Source: Candidatus Theseobacter exili
Lineage (GTDB): Bacteria; Auribacterota; JACPWU01; Theseobacterales; Theseobacteraceae
NCBI GenBank assembly: GCA_030765365.1
Contig: JAVCCS010000026.1
Coordinates: 1-19,640, forward strand
Direction: 5' to 3'
DNA: 19,640 bases
Program-made: the position numbers and the translations under genes
In this document: one piece after another, positions 248 to 11,784 of the stretch
Layout: each line of letters opens with the position of its first letter
Position numbering within the stretch: the first letter of the stretch is position 1
Notes under the pieces: generated by a model
Seen by the model: only the letters and a program-made list of their open reading frames with translations
What the model was told of the DNA's origin: nothing
The model's database searches: none

Positions 248-1027
248 GTGGAAACATCTGTGAAAGAAGGTAAATATATTTATTGTATAATGGCGGCCGC
301 GGATTTGCCGGGCGGAACAAAAACTTTCAAATCGCTTGGAATCGGCGGGAGAGATGATGAGATATATGCTGTCGTTTATAGCGATATCGCCGCTGTAGTA
401 AGCAATTCGCCCATTGTGGCTTATTCCGTATCCAGAGAAAATATGATCGCTCATGAAAAGGCGATCGAAGAAGTGATGAAAGAGTATACGATTTTACCTG
501 TGAGATTTTGTACAATCGCCAAAGACGAAAAGACAGTGAAAACCATTTTAGAAAAGGGATATGGTAAATTCAAGGATATGCTGACGAAAATAGAGGGTAA
601 AAAAGAACTCGGTCTAAAAGCAGTATTTAACGCGGATGCCGTTTATGGCGATATTGTAGAAAAACATAAAGATATAAAAAGATTAAAAGAGAAGCTTAAA
701 GATCTGCCTGCCGATAAGACATATTACGAACGTGTAGAGATAGGCAGAATGGTGGAAAATGCTTTAGGAGAAGAAAGGGAGATCTATAAGGATGATATCT
801 TAAGCGCTCTTTCTCCGTTGGCAATAGAAACCAAGACCAATAATACGTATGGCGAAAAAATGATTGTCAATGCCGCCTTTTTGGTGGAGAAACAGAGAGA
901 AACAGAATTTGACCAAAAGGTTGATGAGCTTGGCGCAAAATACGGTGATACACTAAAATTTAAGTATGTAGGAACATTGCCGCCGTTTAATTTTGTTAAT
1001 CTAATAATTGAAACAGGAGGATACTAA
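248..1027 (+). CDS. gvpF: Gas vesicle protein GvpF/GvpL family
   Basis: GTG start with AAGGAG 10 nt upstream. The N-terminal GKYIYCIM..., ...AHEKAIEEVM...ILPVRFCT and C-terminal PPFNF are the conserved pattern of the GvpL_GvpF family. Confidence 0.8.
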   Translation: METSVKEGKYIYCIMAAADLPGGTKTFKSLGIGGRDDEIYAVVYSDIAAVVSNSPIVAYSVSRENMIAHEKAIEEVMKEYTILPVRFCTIAKDEKTVKTILEKGYGKFKDMLTKIEGKKELGLKAVFNADAVYGDIVEKHKDIKRLKEKLKDLPADKTYYERVEIGRMVENALGEEREIYKDDILSALSPLAIETKTNNTYGEKMIVNAAFLVEKQRETEFDQKVDELGAKYGDTLKFKYVGTLPPFNFVNLIIETGGY

Positions 1028-1276
1028 ATGTTCTTAATTGACAATATATTGCTTGCGCCATTAAATGGTGTAATTTGGGTAGGCAAAAAGATTAATGAGG
1101 TTATAGAAAAGGAGTTTTCTGATGAAGGACTAATAAAAGAAAAACTCATGCAATTACAGATGCGCTTTGAGATGGATGAAATAACTGAAAAAGAATATAA
1201 CACTCAGGAAAAAGAACTTTTAGACCGGTTAGACGATATTAAAAAAGCAAAAGAAAAGGGGTATGAATATGACTGA
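1028..1276 (+). CDS. gvpG: Gas vesicle protein GvpG
   Basis: ATG lies immediately after the gvpF stop and is preceded by AGGAGGA. The N-terminus MFLIDNILLAPLNGVIWVGKKI matches the hydrophobic GvpG signature. About 80 aa, as expected for GvpG. Confidence 0.75.
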   Translation: MFLIDNILLAPLNGVIWVGKKINEVIEKEFSDEGLIKEKLMQLQMRFEMDEITEKEYNTQEKELLDRLDDIKKAKEKGYEYD

Positions 1277-1532
1277 TATAACCCACGTTGGAAAAACTGT
1301 AAGCGATTTTTTAAAAGCCACACTTAATGTAAAAGAGGTAAAGGTTACTAAGGTGACCAAGGCCGATGAAAGTTGGGATACTGAGGCAGAGGTTTATGAA
1401 GCGAGTTCTTTCATAAAAGCTCTTGGGCTAAACACTAAAGTGCAGGATAGGAATTTCTATGAGGTTAAATTGAATAACAAGCTGGAAGTTGAATCTTATG
1501 GACGAAAAGACCAGCTGGGACAGAGTGAATAA
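1263..1532 (+). CDS. gvpO: GvpO-like gas vesicle accessory protein (tentative)
   Basis: Overlaps the gvpG end and the next start (TAATG). The ESWDTEAEVYE...RNFYEVKLNNKLEVESY pattern resembles the GvpO W...EVVE / YEI.LD..GEV motifs. Assignment from memory only. Confidence 0.5.
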   Translation: MNMTDITHVGKTVSDFLKATLNVKEVKVTKVTKADESWDTEAEVYEASSFIKALGLNTKVQDRNFYEVKLNNKLEVESYGRKDQLGQSE

Positions 1533-2326
1533 TGGACCTTATTTATTTGTATTATGTCACAAGGACAAAACCAAACCGCAGTAACCTTGAAGATATAGGC
1601 GCCGAAATCTGCCCAATTTATTTTCAAGATACCTATGCGGTTGTTAGTAAAGTGTCCAAAGATGAGTTTAGTGAAGATAATCTAAAGAAGAACTTGGCTA
1701 ATATGGAATGGGTAGAAAAAAGAATCCGACTGCATGAGAGGATAATCGAAGAAATTATGGAGAAGACAACAGTCCTGCCTTTTAAATTTGGGACAATTTT
1801 TGAATCCGGAGAGAATGTAGAAAAATTACTTAAAGAGCATAACGAAGAATATAAAAAAATAATTGCGAATTTAGAAGGAAAAGAGGAGTGGGGTATTAAG
1901 ATTTACTGCGATATAGAAAAATTAAAGGGATCTCTAACGTTAGAAAATGATGAGATTTCCAAGATAGATAAAGAGATCAGCTCTTCTTCTCCGGGTAAGG
2001 CGCATCTTTTAAAGAAGAAAAAAAATGAGCTTATAAAAAATGTTATAAATGAAGTAATTTCTGGATATACACAAGATAGTTTTGAGCAATTTATAAAAAT
2101 AAGTCTAGAAACAAAGATTAATAAAATATTACCCAAAGAGGTAACTGAGAGGAAGGACAGTATGGTTTTAAACGCCGCCTTTCTAATAAATAAAGAGAGG
2201 GTAAAAGAATGCGGCGGCATATTAGGATATCTAAAAACTAAGTATGCTTCCAAAGGGTTCGTATTTGATTGGACCGGCCCATGGCCGCCATATAATTTTT
2301 GTGATTTACCAAAGGAACAGGTATAA
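1532..2326 (+). CDS. gvpL: Gas vesicle protein GvpL/GvpF family (second paralog)
   Basis: N-terminal LIYLYYV, ...LHERIIEEIMEKTTVLPFKFGT and C-terminal WPPYNF: the same family signature as 248-1027. Confidence 0.8.
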   Translation: MDLIYLYYVTRTKPNRSNLEDIGAEICPIYFQDTYAVVSKVSKDEFSEDNLKKNLANMEWVEKRIRLHERIIEEIMEKTTVLPFKFGTIFESGENVEKLLKEHNEEYKKIIANLEGKEEWGIKIYCDIEKLKGSLTLENDEISKIDKEISSSSPGKAHLLKKKKNELIKNVINEVISGYTQDSFEQFIKISLETKINKILPKEVTERKDSMVLNAAFLINKERVKECGGILGYLKTKYASKGFVFDWTGPWPPYNFCDLPKEQV

Positions 2327-2327
2327 A

Positions 2328-2543
2328 ATGGATAATATAGTTACAAAATCAAAAGATGTGACTCTTTTAGAAATTTTAGACAGGGTTCTGGATAAGGGAG
2401 TGGTTATATCAGGTGATATAGTCATTTCCGTAGCCGACGTGGATCTCATATATATAGGCTTAAAAGTTATGCTTAGTTCGGTGGAAACCATGGAGCGCTT
2501 AAGAGGAGCGCCTATTGAAGGACCTATGCAGGAGCCAACATGA
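2328..2543 (+). CDS. gvpJ: Gas vesicle shell protein family GvpA/GvpJ/GvpM (GvpJ-like)
   Basis: The internal ATG at 2328 follows AAAGGAACAGG. TLLEILDRVLDKGVVISGDIVISVADVDLIYIGLKVMLSSVETM is the canonical GvpA-family core. The 28-codon ORF extension upstream overlaps gvpL and is not coding. Confidence 0.8.
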   Translation: MDNIVTKSKDVTLLEILDRVLDKGVVISGDIVISVADVDLIYIGLKVMLSSVETMERLRGAPIEGPMQEPT

Positions 2544-2863
2544 ATAAACCGTCCGTAGTCATAACAGTTAAAGAGCTAGAGGAAGTTAAAAATGCCAATC
2601 CCGAAAAGATCAATATTGACCCTAAAAATGTGGAGAAAGGGTTGGCAAAACTTGTTCTCACACTTGTAGAGTTGATTAGAAAACTTTTGGAAAAACAGGC
2701 GATAAAAAGGGTAGACGGAGGTTCTCTTTCGGATGAAGAAATAGAAAAAATCGGTGAAACTCTAATGAATCTGGAGAAAAAGATGAAGGAATTAAAAGAA
2801 ATTTTCGGTCTTAAAGACGAAGAGTTGAATATAAATTTAGGTCCTTTGGGAGATTTGCTATGA
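2540..2863 (+). CDS. gvpK: Gas vesicle protein GvpK
   Basis: ATGA overlap with gvpJ. LAKLVLTLVELIRKLLEKQAIKRV...NINLGPLGDLL matches the GvpK family pattern. Confidence 0.75.
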   Translation: MNKPSVVITVKELEEVKNANPEKINIDPKNVEKGLAKLVLTLVELIRKLLEKQAIKRVDGGSLSDEEIEKIGETLMNLEKKMKELKEIFGLKDEELNINLGPLGDLL

Positions 2864-2875
2864 GGGAGGGAAAAT

Positions 2876-3145
2876 ATGCATGAACATGAAGGAGAAGCAA
2901 AAATAAATTGTCCAACATTTCAGAAACAAGAACCAATAATGAAGGGACTTACAAATAAAATTAATACAAATAAAGAGATACAGGAGAAAGCAAAATTTGC
3001 TGAAGAGCTCCAAAAAGAAGTAGCGGTTCTGCTTTCTTGCCCGGATCATAAGAGCGAAAATTTAGACTGTAAGAATTGCCATTTCATTGCAATGTTACGC
3101 AAGAAGGCCGCGGATTTAATAATAAAGGCCAAAAAACTGGTATAA
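2876..3145 (+). CDS. Small Cys/His-rich hypothetical protein, last gene of the gvp operon
   Basis: Strong SD GAGGGAGGG precedes the ATG. It has 4 Cys (CPTF, CPDH, CKNC) and several His, and is followed by a hairpin. No family recognised. Confidence 0.5.
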   Translation: MHEHEGEAKINCPTFQKQEPIMKGLTNKINTNKEIQEKAKFAEELQKEVAVLLSCPDHKSENLDCKNCHFIAMLRKKAADLIIKAKKLV

Positions 3146-3152
3146 AAAAGTA

Positions 3153-3186
3153 ACACCCCGCACTTATAAGGAATTGTGCGGGTGTG
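3153..3186 (+). terminator. Candidate stem-loop downstream of the gvp operon (weak intrinsic terminator)
   Basis: ACACCCCGCAC...GTGCGGGTGTG near-perfect inverted repeat with a 12-nt loop. No clean U-tract follows, so efficiency is uncertain. Confidence 0.3.
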
Positions 3187-3447
3187 CCCCTTGTGGGCGA
3201 AGCTGGCTCAATAAAAAACGAACCAAACTGGAAAGCCCAATCTAGTTCGTTAAATATTTTTGGCTCCCGTATTGGACGACTTTCGCAACTGGTTGGTGAC
3301 TGAGTCGGATGCTTTTCTGTTGTTGAAAGAGAAGTTGTAAAAAAATACTACATAGCTATCTGCTTGGCATTAGATGTCTTTTTAGATAATAATACCCACC
3401 AAAATAAGTATTGAATTGTTGTTTTGGATGCCCAATAATATACATTC

Positions 3448-3816
3448 ATGAGTAAGATGGGGAAAATAGAAAAAGAAAATAAATTAAGGTTGTTTATGAA
3501 ACAGAATTCTTCTAAAAAATGGGATGAGTGTGAAAACCCGGAACCAGAGGATACTCCAGAAAGCCAAAAAACGGAAGGTTTTGTTCCTTTTTATGACGCT
3601 CTACGCCAAGTAGGAGTGAATGAAATTAAAATTGTTACAAAATTACCTTGGTATAAAGTTCTTTTATATAAAATAACTGGAAGAGAAATTCCTCTCCCGA
3701 TTGAAGAGGGCTGGGTTGATCAAATGGAGAAGCAGGAAAAAGAGTTCATAGAAGAACAGAAAAAACCAAAAGAACCTATCCCTGGTTGGAATAAGATAGA
3801 TCATATTGATGGATAA
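3448..3816 (+). CDS. Hypothetical acidic protein (start ambiguous: ATG 3448, 3457 or 3496)
   Basis: ORF of 122 aa. There is no SD before 3448, but a -35 TTGAAT/-10 AATAAT pair ends about 8 nt upstream, so it may be leaderless. Alternative ATG 3496 has AAGG upstream. No family recognised. Confidence 0.45.
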   Translation: MSKMGKIEKENKLRLFMKQNSSKKWDECENPEPEDTPESQKTEGFVPFYDALRQVGVNEIKIVTKLPWYKVLLYKITGREIPLPIEEGWVDQMEKQEKEFIEEQKKPKEPIPGWNKIDHIDG

Positions 3817-3957
3817 AAGACTTTTGAAGTTATCATTGTTCAAAATTTGATTTATGAATTTTCTTAGAAAAAATTAATGTGGTTCATTGTTGCATAAAAT
3901 GAGTTGAATAATAAATTAGTAGTTTATTAAGTTCCTTTGACTCGAGGAGTGCTTACT

Positions 3958-4329
3958 ATGAAATTGTTTATTTATCTTGAAAAGACAATTGCTGTAGCAT
4001 TTGGTATCGTACTATTTTTGATAACACTAAGAGGTTCTAATGATTTATTTGGTATTTCAAAATTTGCAGATAAAATCTATTTTACTGATGAGTTGAATTT
4101 TAAAAGAAATATTCTTGCACCTACATACAAGTGTGGCGAAATAGATGTTGACGATGCAAAAGAAATTCTTGCAGATTATCAACAAGAGCATTGGTTTAGA
4201 CACAGTATTGCTGTAGTTATCATTCTTTTAAACGGAATTTGCTCTCTTGCCCTTTCAATATTTACAATAATGCAGCTTTATGAGAAATATAGACTGTTGA
4301 GATTTAGAGAACGATTATTTGTCGAATGA
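3958..4329 (+). CDS. Small membrane protein with two predicted TM helices (alternative start 3937)
   Basis: Hydrophobic segments TIAVAFGIVLFLITL and HSIAVVIILLNGICSLALSIFTIM flank a soluble region of about 70 aa. GGAG lies upstream of ATG 3958. Confidence 0.5.
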   Translation: MKLFIYLEKTIAVAFGIVLFLITLRGSNDLFGISKFADKIYFTDELNFKRNILAPTYKCGEIDVDDAKEILADYQQEHWFRHSIAVVIILLNGICSLALSIFTIMQLYEKYRLLRFRERLFVE

Positions 4330-4400
4330 TTTCTTCTTAAGCCGTTAAAAGGAATCAAAAATTCAAGCAATAATAACCTGGTAGTTAATGGAATTTGATT

Positions 4401-5120
4401 ATGGAGGGGTTAACAAAAAGGAAATTTTGGCTAATAAATGTTTATTTCGATAAGCCATATTCTTTTAAGAAATCACATTACATTAGTACTATTGCGCTTG
4501 ATATGCTTAAGTTGCATTGTAGCGATGCTAAACAAATGGTTTCTTCTTTGATCTCGAAAAATATCCTTAGTCAGTCGCCTGATGGAAATAAAGTAAAGTT
4601 TACCGAATACGGTGTGGAATCTTATTTATCAATGAAAAATGCTCAAAAAGAATGGGAAAACCAGCCTATTATAAGGACTGCCACTATTGATCAAAAACAA
4701 ATAATTATTAATGCGGATGAAAAGTACAAAGCTGATCGTATACTTCGGGACATAGTTCAGGAGGCAAGGACAGAACTTTGCATTATTGATGCCTACTTAG
4801 GGTGTAATATTTTTGACTTGATAGTAGACTTGACTCCTTGTATTAAAGCACGTTTGATTTCTTCCAACAAAACATCAAAAACAGTTTTTACTACATATAA
4901 GGCAATTCGAGAGAAGAATCCGGGCATTGAGCTTCGGATTACGGACGAGGGGAAGATTCATGATCGGTACATATTATTGGATGGAAATAAAGCTTATCAT
5001 TTCGGTCATTCATTCAAGGATCTTGGTAGTAAGGATACACAGATTAATAGTGTTAATGATATTATATTACAGTATGATAATTTTGAGAAAAGGTGGGCAA
5101 AATCTACAAAAGTTGAATAA
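4401..5120 (+). CDS. Winged-helix N-terminal domain fused to a divergent PLD-like (H-x-R-x4-D) domain; possible nuclease (ORF also open from TTG 4395)
   Basis: The N-terminus is wHTH-like (ALDMLKLHCSDAKQMVSSLISKNIL...DGNKVKFTEYG). The C-terminus has ELCIIDAYLG...IFDLIVDL...ARLISS then KIHDRYILLDGNKAYHFGHS, resembling the PLD HxKx4Dx6GS motif with K replaced by R. A PD-(D/E)xK fold cannot be excluded. Confidence 0.5.
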   Translation: MEGLTKRKFWLINVYFDKPYSFKKSHYISTIALDMLKLHCSDAKQMVSSLISKNILSQSPDGNKVKFTEYGVESYLSMKNAQKEWENQPIIRTATIDQKQIIINADEKYKADRILRDIVQEARTELCIIDAYLGCNIFDLIVDLTPCIKARLISSNKTSKTVFTTYKAIREKNPGIELRITDEGKIHDRYILLDGNKAYHFGHSFKDLGSKDTQINSVNDIILQYDNFEKRWAKSTKVE

Positions 5121-5154
5121 TAACTGTCCTGTTTAACACTAATAGATTAGTAAT

Positions 5155-6102
5155 ATGAATATAATATCCATGAGTTACAAAGAGTTAAGACTTAGAGATG
5201 CAGTTTTAACCGCAATAAATAAAATACCAAATAGATATTTGGGATATACTTTTTGGGATTTTTCCAAAATGACAACTGTTCCAGATGAGTTAGTAAATTA
5301 TCATCCTCAAAGTATTCGACATATATTTCATGAACTTGAAAAAGATGGAATAATTGTTGCTTATAACTCTGAGCAAAATACACAAAAGAGACAGCATGTA
5401 TTAACATTTGAGGTGAAGGATTGTTTTGAAAATATATATTTTGCTTGGTGTCGTCAAAAAGAGATTTGTTTTGATGATTTGAGTTTTATGAAAAGGGAGG
5501 TCATTCATGATTTCCTTAAAGAAATATATTGTGAATTTGAGCTTTCATCAAATACAAAAATGAAATTTAAAGCTCCAGAAGATATCAATATTTTATTTTA
5601 CCTATTGCATAATCACGTTTTTGAATCATTTGTACATAACTATGACTACATACCTGAACCGTGTGTAGATATTGAGATAAATGCAAAAATCTTTCTAAAT
5701 TTTCTTCTTGAAATAGAGAAACAAAATAGTAATACAGATACAAGCAATAAGATTCAGTTTCCAATACAATGCAGTTGGGAGGATATTGCTATTAATTTTT
5801 TAGATGGCCATTATGTAAAGATTTCAGCTGCTGATTATAAAGATAGATTTAATTTTGTAGAAATGGGTTTTGAAAACAAGAATACTCGTCTACCTAACAA
5901 GCAATGGTTGTTATTAGAGTTATTAGCCAATAGTAACGGTTGTATTGATTGGGAAGATACTGAAGCCAACTCAAAACTCAAAAAGCAAAAGCAGTTACTT
6001 TCAAAGAAACTGCAGTTGTTTTTTAATATTCATTCAGATCCTTTTTATCCTTATCATAAAGAAAAATCTTACCGCATTAAAATCAAACTTATACCGTATT
6101 GA
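5155..6102 (+). CDS. Hypothetical 315-aa protein with two winged-helix-like segments (RepA-like architecture?)
   Basis: N-terminal SIRHIFHELEKDGIIVAYNSEQNTQKRQHVLTFE and C-terminal QWLLLELLANSNGCIDWED...KLKKQKQLLSKKLQ both look wHTH-like. Starts 34 nt after the previous gene. No confident family. Confidence 0.45.
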   Translation: MNIISMSYKELRLRDAVLTAINKIPNRYLGYTFWDFSKMTTVPDELVNYHPQSIRHIFHELEKDGIIVAYNSEQNTQKRQHVLTFEVKDCFENIYFAWCRQKEICFDDLSFMKREVIHDFLKEIYCEFELSSNTKMKFKAPEDINILFYLLHNHVFESFVHNYDYIPEPCVDIEINAKIFLNFLLEIEKQNSNTDTSNKIQFPIQCSWEDIAINFLDGHYVKISAADYKDRFNFVEMGFENKNTRLPNKQWLLLELLANSNGCIDWEDTEANSKLKKQKQLLSKKLQLFFNIHSDPFYPYHKEKSYRIKIKLIPY

Positions 6103-6115
6103 TAATTCTCTAACC

Positions 6116-6136
6116 GGGAAAACAACCTTTTCCCGT
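6116..6136 (+). terminator. Hairpin downstream of the 315-aa gene
   Basis: CGGGAAAA-CAACC-TTTTCCCG, a perfect 8-bp stem, followed by a T-rich stretch. Confidence 0.35.
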
Positions 6137-6246
6137 GAATTTCGTTGTCTTATTAAAAAAAAATCTGATTTTTTTTGGTTCATATTTCCGTACAAATCCA
6201 CAATTTAGTGAAATTTCGCCATTTTAGGGTAAAAGGACATTTAATA

Positions 6247-6414
6247 ATGGCGAAGTTTTCAGACAAATATCTCAAACAAACTATTGAAGTATGGAAACCA
6301 TACTATCCAGAGGTTCTTACTTTCGAAGATGCTCGTGAAATAGCTGAAAACACCATTGGTCTGTATAAACTCATTATGGAATTGGAAGGACATGAAGATC
6401 AGGCGAAAGTTTAA
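6247..6414 (+). CDS. Small hypothetical protein (55 aa)
   Basis: ATG 6247 has AAAGGAC upstream. Overlaps the next gene by 23 nt in another frame. The longer ORF from 6175 is unlikely because it spans the A9/T8 tracts. Confidence 0.35.
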   Translation: MAKFSDKYLKQTIEVWKPYYPEVLTFEDAREIAENTIGLYKLIMELEGHEDQAKV

Positions 6415-6814
6415 TGTTGGACTAATTAAGAAAACATTGTGTTACTCCACAAATGAAATAGCTGAATTGTTTTCTATACATAAAAGAACTGTTCAAACGT
6501 TGTACAAAGAAGGTCTTATGAAAATTGATGATAGAAAACCTTTTTTGGTAAAAGGGGCTGATTTGGTGGCCTTTATTAAAACTCGCCAGAAACAACATAA
6601 GAAGAAATGCGAGCAAACTGAAATGTATTGCTGTAAATGTCATTTGCCCAGGAAACCATTATCTGGAACTGTTGAATTAATTTTTATCAATAAAAGACAG
6701 ATTCAGTTACAAGCTTTTTGTTCGATATGTAAGACAAAAATCTTTAAGTTTATTAAGCCTGCGAAGTTAGAAGAGTATAAAAAAATATTTATGGTGAATA
6801 AGAGGCAATATTAA
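6392..6814 (+). CDS. Putative DNA-binding protein: HTH plus Cys-rich zinc-ribbon-like region
   Basis: GGAAGGA SD before ATG 6392. HTH-like STNEIAELFSIHKRTVQTLYKEGL. CCKCH...CSICK cysteine pairs. Confidence 0.45.
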   Translation: MKIRRKFNVGLIKKTLCYSTNEIAELFSIHKRTVQTLYKEGLMKIDDRKPFLVKGADLVAFIKTRQKQHKKKCEQTEMYCCKCHLPRKPLSGTVELIFINKRQIQLQAFCSICKTKIFKFIKPAKLEEYKKIFMVNKRQY

Positions 6815-6874
6815 GACTTATCTTAGTCTGTTGATTGTCTCGTAAACACTGACAAGAAGTAGAGGTGAAAAGAT

Positions 6875-7963
6875 ATGATTAAATACAACGCAAAAAATGA
6901 AAGAATAAAAAGAGAATATTTTGAATATCAAAGAGAAGCACGGCAGAAAAGTATTGCTACAGTAGACAATATAAGAAAGGCAATAGACCGGTATGAGAAA
7001 TATACTGATTATAAAGATTTTAAGACATTTAACAAGCGTCAGGCCGTTGGATTTAAAAAAAGCTTTTCTCAAACAAAAGGTGTTGCTTCGAAAGATTATT
7101 TGAGTAAATCAACCTTGTTATCAACAGTAAGAAACTTAAAAGATTTTTTTGGATGGGTGGCATATCAGCCCGGATATAAGAATATCGATATTAGGGATAT
7201 TGAATATTTGAATCTTTCTGAGAAGGATACCAGGATTGCTAAATCAAAAAAACAGCCTAAGGTTCCTACAATAGATCAAATAAGAAAAGTACTCAACTGC
7301 ATGCCTTATAAAACAGATATTGAAAAGCGGAATAGGGCTCTTATAGCATTTACTATTCTAACTGGAGTAAGGGATGGTGCTATTGCTTCATTAAAAATCA
7401 AGCATATTGATGTTGAGGAGAAGATTGTTAAGCAAATGCCGGATCAGGTTAAAACTAAGTTTAGTAAAACTATTTATACTTATTTCTTCCCTGTGGGGGG
7501 TGATATTGAACAAATAGTTGTAGATTGGATATTGTATTTAAAAAAAGAATTGTTTTTTGATGAAGAGGCACCACTTTTTCCCAGGACAAGACTAACTGTA
7601 TCAAGTGAAAACTGTTTTACGGCTTCAGGTTTAGAGCCTGTTCATTGGCAATCGGCCAATCAGATCAGAAAAATATTTAAAGTAGAATTTATAAATGCAG
7701 GGCTTTCTTACTATAGCCCGCATTGCTTTAGAAATACCATAACACGCTTAGGGGAGAGACTTTGCAAATCGGCTGAGGATTTTAAAGCCTGGAGTCAGAA
7801 TTTAGGGCATGAGTCTCCTTCAACTACTTTTACCAGTTATGGATATATAGAAACACACACTCAAGGTAAAATTATTAAGGAAATTGGAACAAGTGAAAAG
7901 AAAAGTACAGATGAAAAACTCGAAGAAATATTGGCTCGCCTTCCAAAACAGGAATTACTTTAA
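6875..7963 (+). CDS. Tyrosine site-specific recombinase / phage-type integrase
   Basis: GAGGTG SD. Catalytic-domain motifs RNRALIAFTILTGVRDGAIASL, HCFRNT (H-x-x-R) and LGHES...TSYGYI (catalytic Tyr). Confidence 0.85.
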   Translation: MIKYNAKNERIKREYFEYQREARQKSIATVDNIRKAIDRYEKYTDYKDFKTFNKRQAVGFKKSFSQTKGVASKDYLSKSTLLSTVRNLKDFFGWVAYQPGYKNIDIRDIEYLNLSEKDTRIAKSKKQPKVPTIDQIRKVLNCMPYKTDIEKRNRALIAFTILTGVRDGAIASLKIKHIDVEEKIVKQMPDQVKTKFSKTIYTYFFPVGGDIEQIVVDWILYLKKELFFDEEAPLFPRTRLTVSSENCFTASGLEPVHWQSANQIRKIFKVEFINAGLSYYSPHCFRNTITRLGERLCKSAEDFKAWSQNLGHESPSTTFTSYGYIETHTQGKIIKEIGTSEKKSTDEKLEEILARLPKQELL

Positions 7964-7985
7964 TAAGACTTGAAATAAACATAAA

Positions 7986-8005
7986 ATGTTATATTATGTT
8001 ATATT
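7986..8005 (+). repeat. Tandem 10-bp direct repeat ATGTTATATT x2 abutting the XRE start codon
   Basis: 7986-7995 and 7996-8005 are identical. The third unit starts with the ATG of the XRE ORF at 8006. Confidence 0.5.
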
Positions 8006-8191
8006 ATGAATATATTGGAAAGACTTGAACTATATCGTTTGGAAAATCGAGTTTCACAGAAAAAACTTGCGGGAATGCTTGGTGTGTCTTTTGCAACAGT
8101 TAATCGTTGGTTTAACGGCAGAACAAAACCTAATAAAATTCAGACATTTCATATTGAGAAACTTCTAAAGGAGCATGCCTTTGATGAATAA
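8006..8191 (+). CDS. XRE-family helix-turn-helix protein (possible Xis/RDF or element repressor)
   Basis: SQKKLAGMLGVSFATVNRWFNG is a classic HTH_XRE. It overlaps the recombinase start by 8 nt. Confidence 0.7.
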   Translation: MNILERLELYRLENRVSQKKLAGMLGVSFATVNRWFNGRTKPNKIQTFHIEKLLKEHAFDE

Positions 8192-9644
8192 GGCCATACT
8201 TTATACGCGTGTATCGAGTAAAGCACAAGAGCAGGACGGTTATTCTCTGGATGCGCAGGAGAAACTTGGCTATGAGTATGCGTTAAAAAAGGGTTTTGCT
8301 ATTTGCAAATCCTGGAAGGTTTCTGAATCTGCATGGAAACAGGACAGGGAAGCTTTTTCAGAAATGCTTGAATATGCGAAGCGTAATGAAAAAGTAAAAC
8401 ATATTATTTTTGATGTTACTGACCGTATGACGCGTAATGATTATGATAAGATAAGAATTTATACTTTGATTAGGGAGTATAATAAAACAATACATTTTTC
8501 GCGCAATAATAAAATCATAGATAAAGCCTCCGGTTCTGATGATGAATTTATGCTTGATATTGAGGTTGCAGTTGCTAAAAAGATGTCTAATGATATTTCA
8601 AAGAAAACAAGCATGGGGTTACTTGAAAAGGCTGAACAGGGTTTTTATCCTTCATTTGCGCCTATTGGATATATTAATAACAAGGTTACAAAGTTAATAG
8701 ATTTAGATCACGAAACTGCACATCTAATTAGGCAATGCTTTGAACTTTATGCGACCGGTAACTATTCTTTAGAGTCTTTACGGCACGAGATGCGGCATAG
8801 AGGCTTAGAAAGTTCTTCCAAGAGTAAGATTGCACATGTTTTGCATAATCCCTTTTATTATGGAGGTTTTATCTGGTTGGGAAAACTTTACATGGGGTCA
8901 CATAAACCAATTATATCCAAAGAGCTTTTTGATAAGGTACAACAGCTGTTAACAGGCAAACCATTAATACATAAACAGAAACATCTTTTTCACTTCAACA
9001 ATTTAATTACTTGCGGTGAATGTGGGTGCAAGGTAATTGGTGAACGTAAAACAAAGACAAGCGGTAAAGTATATGATTATTATCATTGTACTTTTTCAAA
9101 AGGAAGACATGGTTCAAATAAGTATTACAAGAACAGTTATATCGAAAAGCAATTTGAAAATATTGTTGAATCCGTGACTCTACCTGAAGATATGGCTGAT
9201 TGGATTGCCCAGGGAATAAAAGAAATAAGCAAGGACAGGTTCAGGGTGCAGGAAGTCAAAATAAAGCGTTTAAAAGGCGAATTAGCCCTTCTTAATGCAA
9301 GGTTAAGCAAGTTATATGATATGAAGTTAGACGGTGAAATTGAAGATGGTATGTTTAAATCAAAAGAAGCTGAGTTTAAAAGTACTATTGCTGAACTTAC
9401 TATAGCGGTTTCTTATGCTGAAAAAGAAAATCGTGATTACTTTGAAACTGGAAGGCAAACCCTCGAACTCTCTAAACGCTTACATAAACAGTATGTTAGG
9501 GCAGATGGTATTAATAAGGCAATAATCTTACGTTTTATAGCTTCGAACTACACTCTAAATGACGCAAGTCTTTCTCCTGCAATGAGAAAGCCCTTCAGCA
9601 TCTTTGCTAAAGGGCTATCCCGTACAATTTGGCTCCTCGGGTAA
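8184..9644 (+). CDS. Large serine recombinase (resolvase N-domain + recombinase domain + zinc ribbon)
   Basis: AILYTRVSSKAQEQDGYSLDAQ catalytic-Ser motif. CGECGC...YYHC zinc ribbon. C-terminal coiled-coil. The last 5 codons and the stop lie inside tRNA-Asn. Confidence 0.85.
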   Translation: MNKAILYTRVSSKAQEQDGYSLDAQEKLGYEYALKKGFAICKSWKVSESAWKQDREAFSEMLEYAKRNEKVKHIIFDVTDRMTRNDYDKIRIYTLIREYNKTIHFSRNNKIIDKASGSDDEFMLDIEVAVAKKMSNDISKKTSMGLLEKAEQGFYPSFAPIGYINNKVTKLIDLDHETAHLIRQCFELYATGNYSLESLRHEMRHRGLESSSKSKIAHVLHNPFYYGGFIWLGKLYMGSHKPIISKELFDKVQQLLTGKPLIHKQKHLFHFNNLITCGECGCKVIGERKTKTSGKVYDYYHCTFSKGRHGSNKYYKNSYIEKQFENIVESVTLPEDMADWIAQGIKEISKDRFRVQEVKIKRLKGELALLNARLSKLYDMKLDGEIEDGMFKSKEAEFKSTIAELTIAVSYAEKENRDYFETGRQTLELSKRLHKQYVRADGINKAIILRFIASNYTLNDASLSPAMRKPFSIFAKGLSRTIWLLG

Positions 9645-9704
9645 GACTCGAACTTACAACCTAGTGGTTAACAGCCACCCGCTCTACCATTGAGCTACCG
9701 AGGA
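9630..9704 (-). tRNA. tRNA-Asn (anticodon GUU)
   Basis: The reverse complement folds as a canonical cloverleaf: acceptor UCCUCGG/CCGAGGA, anticodon loop CUGUUAA, T-loop UUCGAGU, G73, encoded CCA. Confidence 0.85.
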
Positions 9705-9942: not shown

Positions 9943-9998
9943 ATTTCCTTTTCCGTTTTTGCAGGGGGAAAACTATCACCAGTTTTTTTTTTTGTCAA
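9943..9998 (-). promoter_or_regulatory. Candidate sigma70-type promoter of the hicB-like gene with an A11 homopolymer in the spacer
   Basis: Minus strand reads TTGACA-A10-CTGGTGA-TAGTTT (17-nt spacer; TGaTAGTTT is extended -10-like). The -35 overlaps the tilS stop. Confidence 0.3.
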
Positions 9999-11452
9999 TG
10001 GAAAAAACGGACCTTGATTCGTAATACCCGTTTTGATGTTTCAAGGATTTTAAAATATTCAGAAATACGATATCCTACTATCCATGCAATTTCGTTTGCT
10101 GTTGTCAAGATGGGGATGGTTTCTCTGAATCTTGGAGATATTTTTTCATCTATCAAGATGTCTTTTATTTTTTTGCTTCCTTCAAAACCTATAGGCGTGA
10201 ATCTGTCACCTTTACTACGTGAACGGAAGAATATTATTTCCCCAATACGGTCTGCGTCAAAGAATTCTTCAAATTCACTTATGCCGTTGTGATTTGGGTC
10301 ATTCCATGTTCTTGATAATTTGCCTGCATGTTTAGCAAGTTTTGATATTTCAATTGTTTCGGTTGTTAATATTTCAGTAATTACTTCCATTCTTGGTATG
10401 TCAAATTTTGTTGTACCTGGTATTTCAACAGGACCGCCTTCAACTACAGGTTTTGAATATTCTCCGCGTGAAAGAAGAATCAGATTATATTCTTTTACAG
10501 CTGTTATATCATCTGGAAGATGTATTTGGCGTCCTGATGGTTTAAGAAAGATTAAATCCATTAAGTCTTCTATGTGATTGTAGGTTATTCCAAGCAGGTT
10601 GCCTTTTGTGTCCATTATCATTCTGCGCAGGATAGATCTTTGAAGTGCTTCGTGAATAGCTTTAAACTCAGAAATATTCAGGGTGTAGTGTCGTTGGCGC
10701 TTTTCAACCATTTGCTTGTAGATAGGCTGTAGTGTTTGTTCAAAGAAATCTGTTTCTGAATCAAGTATTTTTGATAGGTTTATAAGAACTTCCCGCGCTT
10801 TAGGATTGAAATCATTTTCAAGGAACGGCAGAAGATCATTTCGTATACGGTTTCTTAAGAAACGATTGTCAAGGTTAGACGTATCAACCCTGTATGGAAT
10901 CTTATGATTATCCAGGTAATTCATTATATCTTTGCGCGTTAGTTCAATGAGAGGACGTATTATTGTCAGTTTGTTTTGGCTTCTTACCGGCGGAATTCCA
11001 AGCAAACCTATCGTACCGCATCCGCGAAGTAAGCGCATTATTATGGTTTCGGCCAGATCATCTCTGGTGTGTCCTGTTGCAATAATTTTTATGTTTTCTT
11101 TTATTGCTGTTTTTTCAAGAAACAGGTATCGTGCTTTTCTCCCGGCTTCTTCAATGGAAAGCCTGTTTTTTTCAGCGAGTTTTTTAACGTCAGTTTCATC
11201 GGTGATAACTTTAATTCCTAATTGTTTTCCCTGTTCTACAACAAAAAGGGCATCTCCATCGGCTTCCTGACCGCGCAATTGATGGTTTAAGTGTGCAACT
11301 ACTAACTTTAGATCGAGAGCCTGTGAAATTTCTTTGAGAAGGTACATCATTGCTATAGAATCAGGTCCGCCAGAAACAGAAAGCAGAACAGGACTTCCTT
11401 TGTCCAGCATGGAATAGCGTTTAATGCTGTTTAGAATAATATCTTTTATCAT
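9995..11452 (-). CDS. tilS: tRNA(Ile)-lysidine synthetase
   Basis: PP-loop SVSGGPDSIAMMYLL near the N-terminus. Length and C-terminal domain are typical of TilS. Confidence 0.85.
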   Translation of the reverse strand: MIKDIILNSIKRYSMLDKGSPVLLSVSGGPDSIAMMYLLKEISQALDLKLVVAHLNHQLRGQEADGDALFVVEQGKQLGIKVITDETDVKKLAEKNRLSIEEAGRKARYLFLEKTAIKENIKIIATGHTRDDLAETIIMRLLRGCGTIGLLGIPPVRSQNKLTIIRPLIELTRKDIMNYLDNHKIPYRVDTSNLDNRFLRNRIRNDLLPFLENDFNPKAREVLINLSKILDSETDFFEQTLQPIYKQMVEKRQRHYTLNISEFKAIHEALQRSILRRMIMDTKGNLLGITYNHIEDLMDLIFLKPSGRQIHLPDDITAVKEYNLILLSRGEYSKPVVEGGPVEIPGTTKFDIPRMEVITEILTTETIEISKLAKHAGKLSRTWNDPNHNGISEFEEFFDADRIGEIIFFRSRSKGDRFTPIGFEGSKKIKDILIDEKISPRFRETIPILTTANEIAWIVGYRISEYFKILETSKRVLRIKVRFFH

Positions 11453-11625: not shown

Positions 11626-11702
<77 letters not shown>

Positions 11703-11707
11703 ATTTA

Positions 11708-11784
11708 GGCGGATTAGCTCAGTTGGTTAGAGCAGGGGAATCATAATCCTCGTGTCCGGGGTTCGAATCCCTGATCCGCTACCA
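11708..11784 (+). tRNA. CAU-anticodon tRNA (elongator Met, or tRNA-Ile2 lysidine substrate)
   Basis: GGCGGAUUAGCUCAGUUGGUUAGAGC...AUCAUAA...GGUUCGAAUCC...AUCCGCUACCA. Anticodon CAU. Identity as Met versus Ile2 cannot be decided by eye. Confidence 0.8.

Follow-up and report, generated by a model that had tools for sequence, protein, structure and literature searches.

A winged-helix protein with an H-D-R-type PLD domain on an apparent integrative island of Candidatus Theseobacter exili

Does a PLD-like half-site in which the canonical lysine has become an arginine still cut nucleic acids, and what would such a site do behind a winged helix in one small protein? The question is raised by a gene in a metagenome-assembled genome (MAG) of Candidatus Theseobacter exili (Auribacterota, PVC group), which a sequence-only reading had taken for a winged helix (wHTH) fused to a divergent PLD-like domain. 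The domain concerned, called HDR here after its H-D-R motif, is widespread: it occurs in Menshen (matched here), in BREX and Druantia by published reports, and in the single-gene defence candidate PDC-S05. On its chemistry, 2026 preprints on the Druantia protein DruE reach opposite conclusions. A small two-domain protein without partner genes lends itself well to testing nucleic-acid cleavage by H-D-R PLD domains, and the answer would also have a bearing on a possible enzymatic ancestry of human MITD1. To defence-systems specialists the protein itself will come as no surprise, the family being already catalogued as candidate anti-phage genes. Below, the window means the whole stretch of DNA analysed, which is the entire 19,640-bp contig.

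Gene, fold and the H-D-R half-site

The program-made list of open reading frames contains a real plus-strand frame at 4395..5120, within which the coding sequence at 4401..5120 is complete, as supported by that list, by full-length homologues and by a PADLOC match. Eight homologues (42-53% identity, 236-242 aa) align to the ATG at 4401 from their own first residues, and we therefore take the protein to be 239 aa long. The deposited NCBI gene call starts at 4503 (MLKLHC..., 205 aa) and so lacks 34 N-terminal residues that belong to the winged helix and are conserved among homologues; judged from these alignments, the deposited start is probably 34 codons too late. The gain for annotation is a start moved 34 codons upstream and a product name, wHTH / PLD-like (MIT_C-like, PDC-S05) protein. 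The single-chain AlphaFold2 model, built from a 12-sequence alignment, has a mean pLDDT of 84.5, with values of 85-94 across most of the C-terminal half. The gene and its parts are as follows:

4401..5120, plus strand: complete coding sequence, 239 aa and stop
4401..4601, plus strand: N-terminal wHTH, aa 1-67 (helices 6-16, 28-37 and 43-52; wing strands 56-58 and 64-67)
4605..4661, plus strand: long connecting helix, aa 69-87 (AlphaFold2 model)
4689..5108, plus strand: PLD-fold domain of the MIT_C-like HDR clade, aa 97-236
4788..4796, plus strand: D130-A-Y132 motif directly after strand beta2 (translation; family consensus D-P-Y)
4959..5027, plus strand: core half-site H187-D188-R189-x4-D194-x7-G202-H203-S204-x-K206-D207-x-G209 (translation, conservation counts)

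In the model, the long helix is followed by a floppy, low-confidence linker (aa 89-95) and then by a domain of topology beta-alpha-beta-alpha-beta-alpha-beta-beta-beta-beta-alpha (aa 97-236), whose mixed beta-sheet, flanking helices and hairpin-borne motif are those of the PLD superfamily alpha/beta fold. All strong structural matches to this C-terminal half are PLD folds, with the following scores:

FAM83A, 17.3
Nuc, 16.9
FAM83B, 16.9
NucT, 16.6
Zucchini, 14.7-14.9
Vaccinia F13, 14.5
SauUSI, 14.4
TrmBL2, 14.4
BfiI, 11.1
MITD1, 9.9

The highest sequence identity among them belongs to MITD1 (21%), and a structure search of BFVD returned poxvirus F13-type PLDs alone. The proposed fusion of a winged helix to a PLD-superfamily domain is thus borne out by the model and its structural matches, and a different fold such as PD-(D/E)xK, named beforehand as the outcome that would overturn it, did not appear.

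Over the full length, the best Foldseek matches are TrmBL2 (5bpi, E 3.4e-11) and also TrmB (3qph). TrmB and TrmBL2 carry a wHTH, a long helix and a PLD-like domain in the same order as the target, whose long helix (aa 69-87) occupies the position of their dimerisation helix. The PLD-like domain of TrmB is part of a sugar-binding module and not an HKD-like site. This likeness introduces a possible, if on the whole unlikely, reading in which the protein works as a TrmB-like factor for transcription or chromatin: the wHTH would sit on operators, the PLD-like domain would serve as a non-catalytic dimerisation and ligand module, and a ligand, for example a phosphorylated metabolite or nucleotide, would switch DNA binding. 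Such a protein might regulate genes of the island described below. Against it, the target matches neither Pfam TrmB (PF01978) nor Regulator_TrmB (PF11495) at E<=1. The shared layout is probably a parallel or very ancient arrangement.

The half-site itself lies at 4959-5027, which translates as HDRYILLDGNKAYHFGHSFKDLG, identical to the letters quoted in the sequence-only reading. That reading had numbered its residues H189, R191 and D197; the histidine and arginine are right when counted from the TTG at 4395, but the aspartate is off by one, and counted from the ATG the motif runs H187-x-R189-x4-D194-x7-G202-H203-S204. The canonical HKD motif is HxK(x)4D(x)6G[ST]xN. Here arginine stands in for lysine, and instead of the S/N pair there is an S/K pair at a shifted position. 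Translation and alignments agree with the earlier claim of HxR for HxK and of a single half-site per chain. Two further features of the HDR clade are present in the model: an acidic residue after beta2 (strand 125-129 runs into D130-A-Y132) and an H-D-R ahead of beta5 (H187-D188-R189 directly precedes strand 190-193). Counted over 176 family members, the residues of the site are kept as follows:

R189, 176/176
H187, 175/176
D130, 174/176
G202, 174/176
D188, 172/176
G209, 171/176
S204, 169/176
T/S154, 167/176
K206, 167/176
Y132, 164/176
D207, 162/176
K/R211, 156/176
D194, 148/176

The polar set D130, Y132, H187, D188, R189, S204, K206 and D207 is near-invariant. The family consensus reads HxR(x)4D(x)6G[HA]SxKD, with the canonical x6 spacing in most members; the target, at x7, has one hairpin residue more. 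On these alignments, HxR is a clade signature rather than an isolated divergence. The inactive decoy or sensor that had been offered as the alternative to a nuclease may still apply, although the way the site is conserved makes a dead domain less likely. Conservation also weighs against the TrmB-like factor, as the HKD-like polar set is kept at 92-100% across very divergent members.

An H-D-R clade within the PLD superfamily

Taken alone, the target's C-terminal domain has no significant match in Pfam, PHROGs or NCBIfam, where single-sequence searches gave weak matches to DUF3567, VPA1262_N_dom (E 5.8e-4) and phrog_19964, and phmmer searches of PDB sequences with the target and with one relative (P0079) returned chance matches alone. 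At E<=1 the target matches neither Pfam PLDc_2 (PF13091, gathering threshold 27 bits) nor Pfam MIT_C. Among relatives, PLDc_2 matches at E<=1e-3 appear in 32 of 143 (best 3.1e-7), with three scored individually at 21.4-25.8 bits, under the 27-bit cutoff, and sub-threshold MIT_C matches appear in 9 of 21 (best E 1e-3) and 3 of 143. Taken with the profile results that follow, these sub-threshold matches of relatives to both models indicate a PLD-superfamily member, probably on the MIT_C side of the clan.

A domain-only profile of 21 diverse members (A2) found a single solved protein among PDB sequences, human MITD1 (4A5Z, E 3.8e-5; 2YMB, E 1.2e-4), and its alignment pairs the family's I-x-D-P-Y-i with IEDPYI and iHDRyi with IHDREI. 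A full-length profile of 143 sequences (A3) found nothing in the same database, because multi-domain proteins align poorly. With the MITD1 C-domain sequence verified against 2YMB_A, hhalign of the family against it gave 88.9% probability (E 2.4e-6), as opposed to 10.7% against verified human PLD6/Zucchini, an alignment that is nevertheless in register across the domain (H187 with His, R189 with Lys, D194 with Asp, G202 with Gly). MITD1, the nearest solved relative, is a membrane-binding dimer with no known catalysis. Its MIT_C domain (Pfam PF16565; PDB 2YMB, 4A5Z) shares with the family the D-P-Y after beta2, the I-H-D-R before beta5 and the glycine, but reads GRGLDY at the place of the prokaryotic GHSFKD, so the bacterial domain would be the more "complete" site. 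The single-HKD nucleases (Nuc 1BYR, NucT, Zucchini/PLD6, BfiI, SauUSI) differ from the family in having lysine in place of arginine and GSxN in place of G-[HA]-S-x-K-D, and it is the family that adds the invariant D130, Y132 and D188.

An HMM search of 1.84 billion cluster representatives recovered 5,737 proteins at E<=1e-3, of which 2,572 reach E<=1e-10. The HDR domain therefore spans at least 5,737 clusters at 50% identity, in bacteria, CPR lineages and archaea, and the H-D-R motif, as the signature of a clade of that size, does not fit the "unusual subtype" of the sequence-only reading; its term "DNA-guided" likewise found no support. A pattern scan of 185,579 species genomes gave 130 relatives, with members in Proteobacteria, Nitrospirota, Elusimicrobiota, Bacillota, Bacteroidota, CPR lineages, Chloroflexota, Thermoplasmatales and Bathyarchaeia. 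Residues 162-211 of the target also match, weakly (E 5.8e-4), positions 398-452 of the 478 in the NCBIfam model "VPA1262 family N-terminal domain", and by this alignment the uncharacterised VPA1262 family may carry the same HDR-type half-site at its C-terminal end.

What varies across the family is mainly what precedes the domain, which is C-terminal in 172 of 176 proteins. An N-terminal part of about 100 aa (75-125 aa) is the commonest size class (81/176), and the target's own wHTH type is found in 21/176. A profile search (A5) for other partners of that wHTH returned two short fragments alone. Other N-terminal partners are an NYN RNase (20/143, about 14%), ORF6N, DUF2321, TPR, EAD1 and RhuM-N. 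Five of 143 relatives match the PADLOC model of NsnC, the Menshen protein whose effector slot is otherwise filled by PIN, BECR or Toprim nucleases (PMC12065111). A module that keeps its C-terminal place while the targeting or adaptor parts before it are exchanged, and that stands in the NsnC nuclease slot, is usually the mark of an effector. That occupancy of effector slots (PMC12065111) speaks against a TrmB-like factor, as does the persistence of the polar set whatever the N-terminal partner, including the non-DNA-binding NYN, TPR and EAD1.

The NYN fusions also favour another reading, which we regard as rather improbable, in which the HDR-PLD domain does not cut but senses or regulates: it would recognise a nucleic-acid feature (a 5'-phosphate end, single-stranded DNA) or a nucleotide signal, and would govern oligomerisation or the action of a partner effector. 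NYN is a predicted RNase, beside which a second nuclease is not obviously needed, and the conserved basic and acidic pocket fits phosphate binding as well as catalysis. The difficulty for the sensor is that the target and most of the family have no other effector domain or conserved partner gene, so that a pure sensor would be left with DNA binding alone to control.

A tRNA-adjacent island and the neighbours of relatives

The gene lies in a low-GC stretch of about 3.3-9.6 kb (~3300-9704; 29-33% GC vs 35-39% in the flanks) between a gas-vesicle operon and tilS. The stretch contains, besides the target:

3448-3816, plus strand: unknown small ORF, 122 aa
3937-4329, plus strand: small ORF, 130 aa, 72 nt upstream of the target, with hydrophobic membrane-like segments by eye
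5155-6102, plus strand: 315-aa ORF, 34 nt downstream of the target
6356-6814: HTH_17/excisionase-like ORF with Cys-rich motifs
6875-7963: tyrosine integrase
8175-9644: large serine recombinase, its 3' end overlapping the tRNA-Asn gene
9630-9704, minus strand: tRNA-Asn

With two recombinases and a tRNA gene at its edge, the stretch has the appearance of an integrative island. No att direct repeat rose above chance: at the left end a repeat of the tRNA-Asn scored 15 at best in local comparison, whereas scores elsewhere in the contig reach 20, and a string resembling a tRNA 3' end, seen by eye at 3261-3300, was likewise unsupported. Scanning for promoters and terminators told us little, with 21 promoter-like sites where 18.2 were expected. 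The two small upstream ORFs have no family match beyond a weak SHOCT-like one and neither is conserved beside homologues; the 315-aa ORF has no significant match in Pfam, PHROGs, PADLOC or NCBIfam and is likewise not found beside them.

The island setting raises a further reading, very improbable in our view, in which the protein serves no defence role and is either an island maintenance protein (a replication initiator or partition-type DNA binder) or a membrane-associated, MITD1-like factor. The gene sits among integrase, serine recombinase and excisionase-like genes, and its wHTH has a weak Phage_rep_O-like match (E 7e-5); on the membrane side, the MITD1 domain binds membranes (Hadders 2012, as cited in PMC12065111), and the putative membrane ORF, read by eye, lies 72 nt upstream. 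However, close homologues stand in unrelated, non-mobile settings, for instance next to genes for an ABC transporter and an aldo-keto reductase, none of the island's genes accompanies the homologues compared below, and a tblastn search of 50,697 phage records did not find the gene.

To look for a conserved partner, we compared the window's ORFs at 3100-6900 by blastp with six loci of close homologues (L001-L006), and the target gene was the only one shared, as expected of a PDC-S05 single-gene system; a TrmB-like factor is thereby left without a conserved regulated neighbour. The neighbourhoods themselves vary. For instance, L001 holds small hypothetical ORFs, two ORFs with Peptidase_S74 domains and a faint SIR2-like match; in L002-L004 the homologue follows the ABC transporter and aldo-keto reductase genes; and in L005 it adjoins MazE/PIN, BrnT/BrnA and bAvd genes. 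Among 108 immediate neighbours of relatives, defence genes are few (Shedu SduA, PDC-S01, type II methylases, mad3) and the rest are ordinary, with Xre-type HTH_3 proteins making up 14 (PADLOC HTH_VI, RmrA, capH-like). Elsewhere in the family, many HDR-PLD genes have a small ORF touching or overlapping their start:

L017, 5198-5509
L047, 5270-5677
L048, 5549-5950
L050, 5524-5934
L055, 1346-1753
and others

This arrangement suggests a two-gene cassette of regulator and effector in those branches, the 14 Xre proteins being a count across the 108 neighbours rather than a one-to-one assignment to the small ORFs listed. The fused wHTH of the target is possibly the one-gene equivalent of such a cassette.

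The flanks of the island hold recognisable genes. A gas-vesicle cluster in this Auribacterota MAG spans 248-2863 on the plus strand, possibly extending to 3145, and tilS lies on the other side:

248-1027, plus strand: GvpL/F
1028-1276, plus strand: GvpG
1263-1532, plus strand: weak GvpO-like ORF
1532-2326, plus strand: second GvpL/F
2244-2543, plus strand: GvpA/J-type gas vesicle protein
2540-2863, plus strand: GvpK
9995-11452, minus strand: tilS
11626-11702 and 11708-11784, plus strand: tandem pair of tRNA-Met (CAT) genes separated by 5 nt, located downstream of tilS

Since TilS modifies tRNA-Ile2, which has a CAT anticodon, one of the two CAT tRNAs is perhaps tRNA-Ile2 and not tRNA-Met.

Named systems and the proposed role

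Among named systems, the closest assignment is PDC-S05, a PADLOC phage-defence candidate (Payne et al. 2024 preprint). Judged by E value, the target matches PDLC04869 over aa 46-223 (E 9e-23, 78.9 bits) and a second model, PDLC04879 (E 1.7e-18), and all 143 relatives match PDC-S05 models; like PDC-S05, the target is a single gene without a conserved partner, and it is not embedded in an RM, BREX or DISARM locus. PDC-S05 is heterogeneous, with about 40 models including RhuM/ORF6N-type proteins. In E. coli, one representative reduced the plating of T7 and T5 by a factor of about 1000 (Nat Commun 2026, PMC12881386); it is described there by its RhuM domain alone, and may lack the HDR-PLD C-terminal domain. 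A chimera of the two types exists on a Bacteroides thetaiotaomicron plasmid (NZ_CP103120.1; L007, 5488-6357), where a protein annotated "RhuM family protein" matches Pfam RhuM at positions 2-78 of 252 alone, its C-terminal half being an HDR-PLD domain that reads …SSHDRFLIIDNTEVYHIGASLKDLGKK…; the gene adjoins an AAA ATPase, a retron-type HNH pair and an N6-methylase.

What appears to be the same domain has been described under another name. PB-PLD1, the effector domain of Menshen NsnC (Zhang lab, NAR 2025, PMC12065111), has a conserved D/E after beta2, HDR before beta5 and an 89% HHsearch probability to MIT_C, and many BrxL C-termini carry the PB-PLD1 site; the authors propose that these are enzymes and predict a nuclease effector. 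Compared by that published description, the diagnostic features of PB-PLD1 and of the target family match. The settings differ: NsnC has a ParB-like N-domain and belongs to the three-gene Menshen system, and BrxL carries its HDR-type domain on an AAA+/Lon protein, whereas the target carries it on a winged helix in a stand-alone gene. The target protein is thus a new, wHTH-fused member subfamily of a known family that has been computationally described and partly tested.

The nearest domains to have been tested are those of Druantia DruE, on which reports conflict. Its C-terminal PLD1 and PLD2 are described as MITD1-like, and their pocket is said to include D, H, D-R-Y, H-x-R and S (2026 preprint); these residue types, compared by description, are those of D130, H187-D-R-Y and S204 in the target, although DruE is a helicase of >2,000 aa with two tandem PLD domains and the target is a small protein with one. 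In one DruE preprint the PLD pocket is needed for defence and D1740A abolishes degradation of single-stranded DNA, whereas in two other, independent preprints defence did not depend on the PLD domains and nuclease activity was not detected; an earlier comparative analysis of DruE had predicted only the second PLD domain to be active. Dispensability in two studies, with cross-talk between systems suggested, adds to the case for a sensor.

Weighing these lines, we give an even chance to the reading in which the target alone makes up a defence or conflict module, as a phosphodiesterase effector tethered to DNA. On this proposal it would be a stand-alone PDC-S05-family effector, carried as cargo on the small low-GC island beside tRNA-Asn, with a MarR/TrmB-like winged helix and a long helix leading into the MIT_C-like HDR PLD domain. 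Because each chain has one half-site, we infer a homodimer with a composite pocket: two chains would pair through their PLD domains, possibly with help from the long helix, and build a single phosphate-binding pocket as in Nuc, BfiI and Zucchini. The catalytic residue would be H187, as nucleophile or general acid. Phosphate would be held by R189 and K206 in place of the canonical lysine and asparagine, with D130, Y132, D188 and D207 as a shell peculiar to the clade. Through the winged helix the dimer would be anchored on DNA: either on invading DNA, its substrate, or on its own operator, which it would repress. In the latter case the winged helix would correspond, in fused form, to the Xre gene that stands apart in other branches. 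The PLD pocket would cut phosphodiester bonds and so restrict phage or plasmid DNA.

Several points hold this estimate where it is. Confidence in the effector does not rise further because no catalysis is known for MITD1, because the DruE preprints conflict on a nuclease role, and because TrmB and TrmBL2 use their PLD-like domain non-catalytically. Also counting against the effector are the departure from the canonical HKD motif (K to R, and GSxN to G-H-S-x-K), the mostly non-defence immediate neighbours of relatives, and the chance that the tested PDC-S05 representative is without the domain.

A bolder extension of the effector reading, which we hold to be doubtful, is that the HDR clade forms a catalytically distinct PLD branch with Arg/Lys phosphate ligands and an Asp/Tyr/Asp shell, possibly metal-assisted. 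If so, the 239-aa fusion would be a minimal DNA-tethered, restriction-like nuclease that needs neither methyltransferase nor ATPase, and the simplest system for deciding whether the PLD domains of DruE, BrxL, NsnC and perhaps MITD1 are enzymes.

Finally, we observed that some genomes carry the domain more than once: a 35.7-kb contig of a Staphylococcaceae MAG (CAZIQF010000018.1) holds three paralogous HDR-PLD genes (L025, L028, L037), and two further MAGs (CAKPBI... and JAFQFT...) have HDR-PLD copies on two contigs each.
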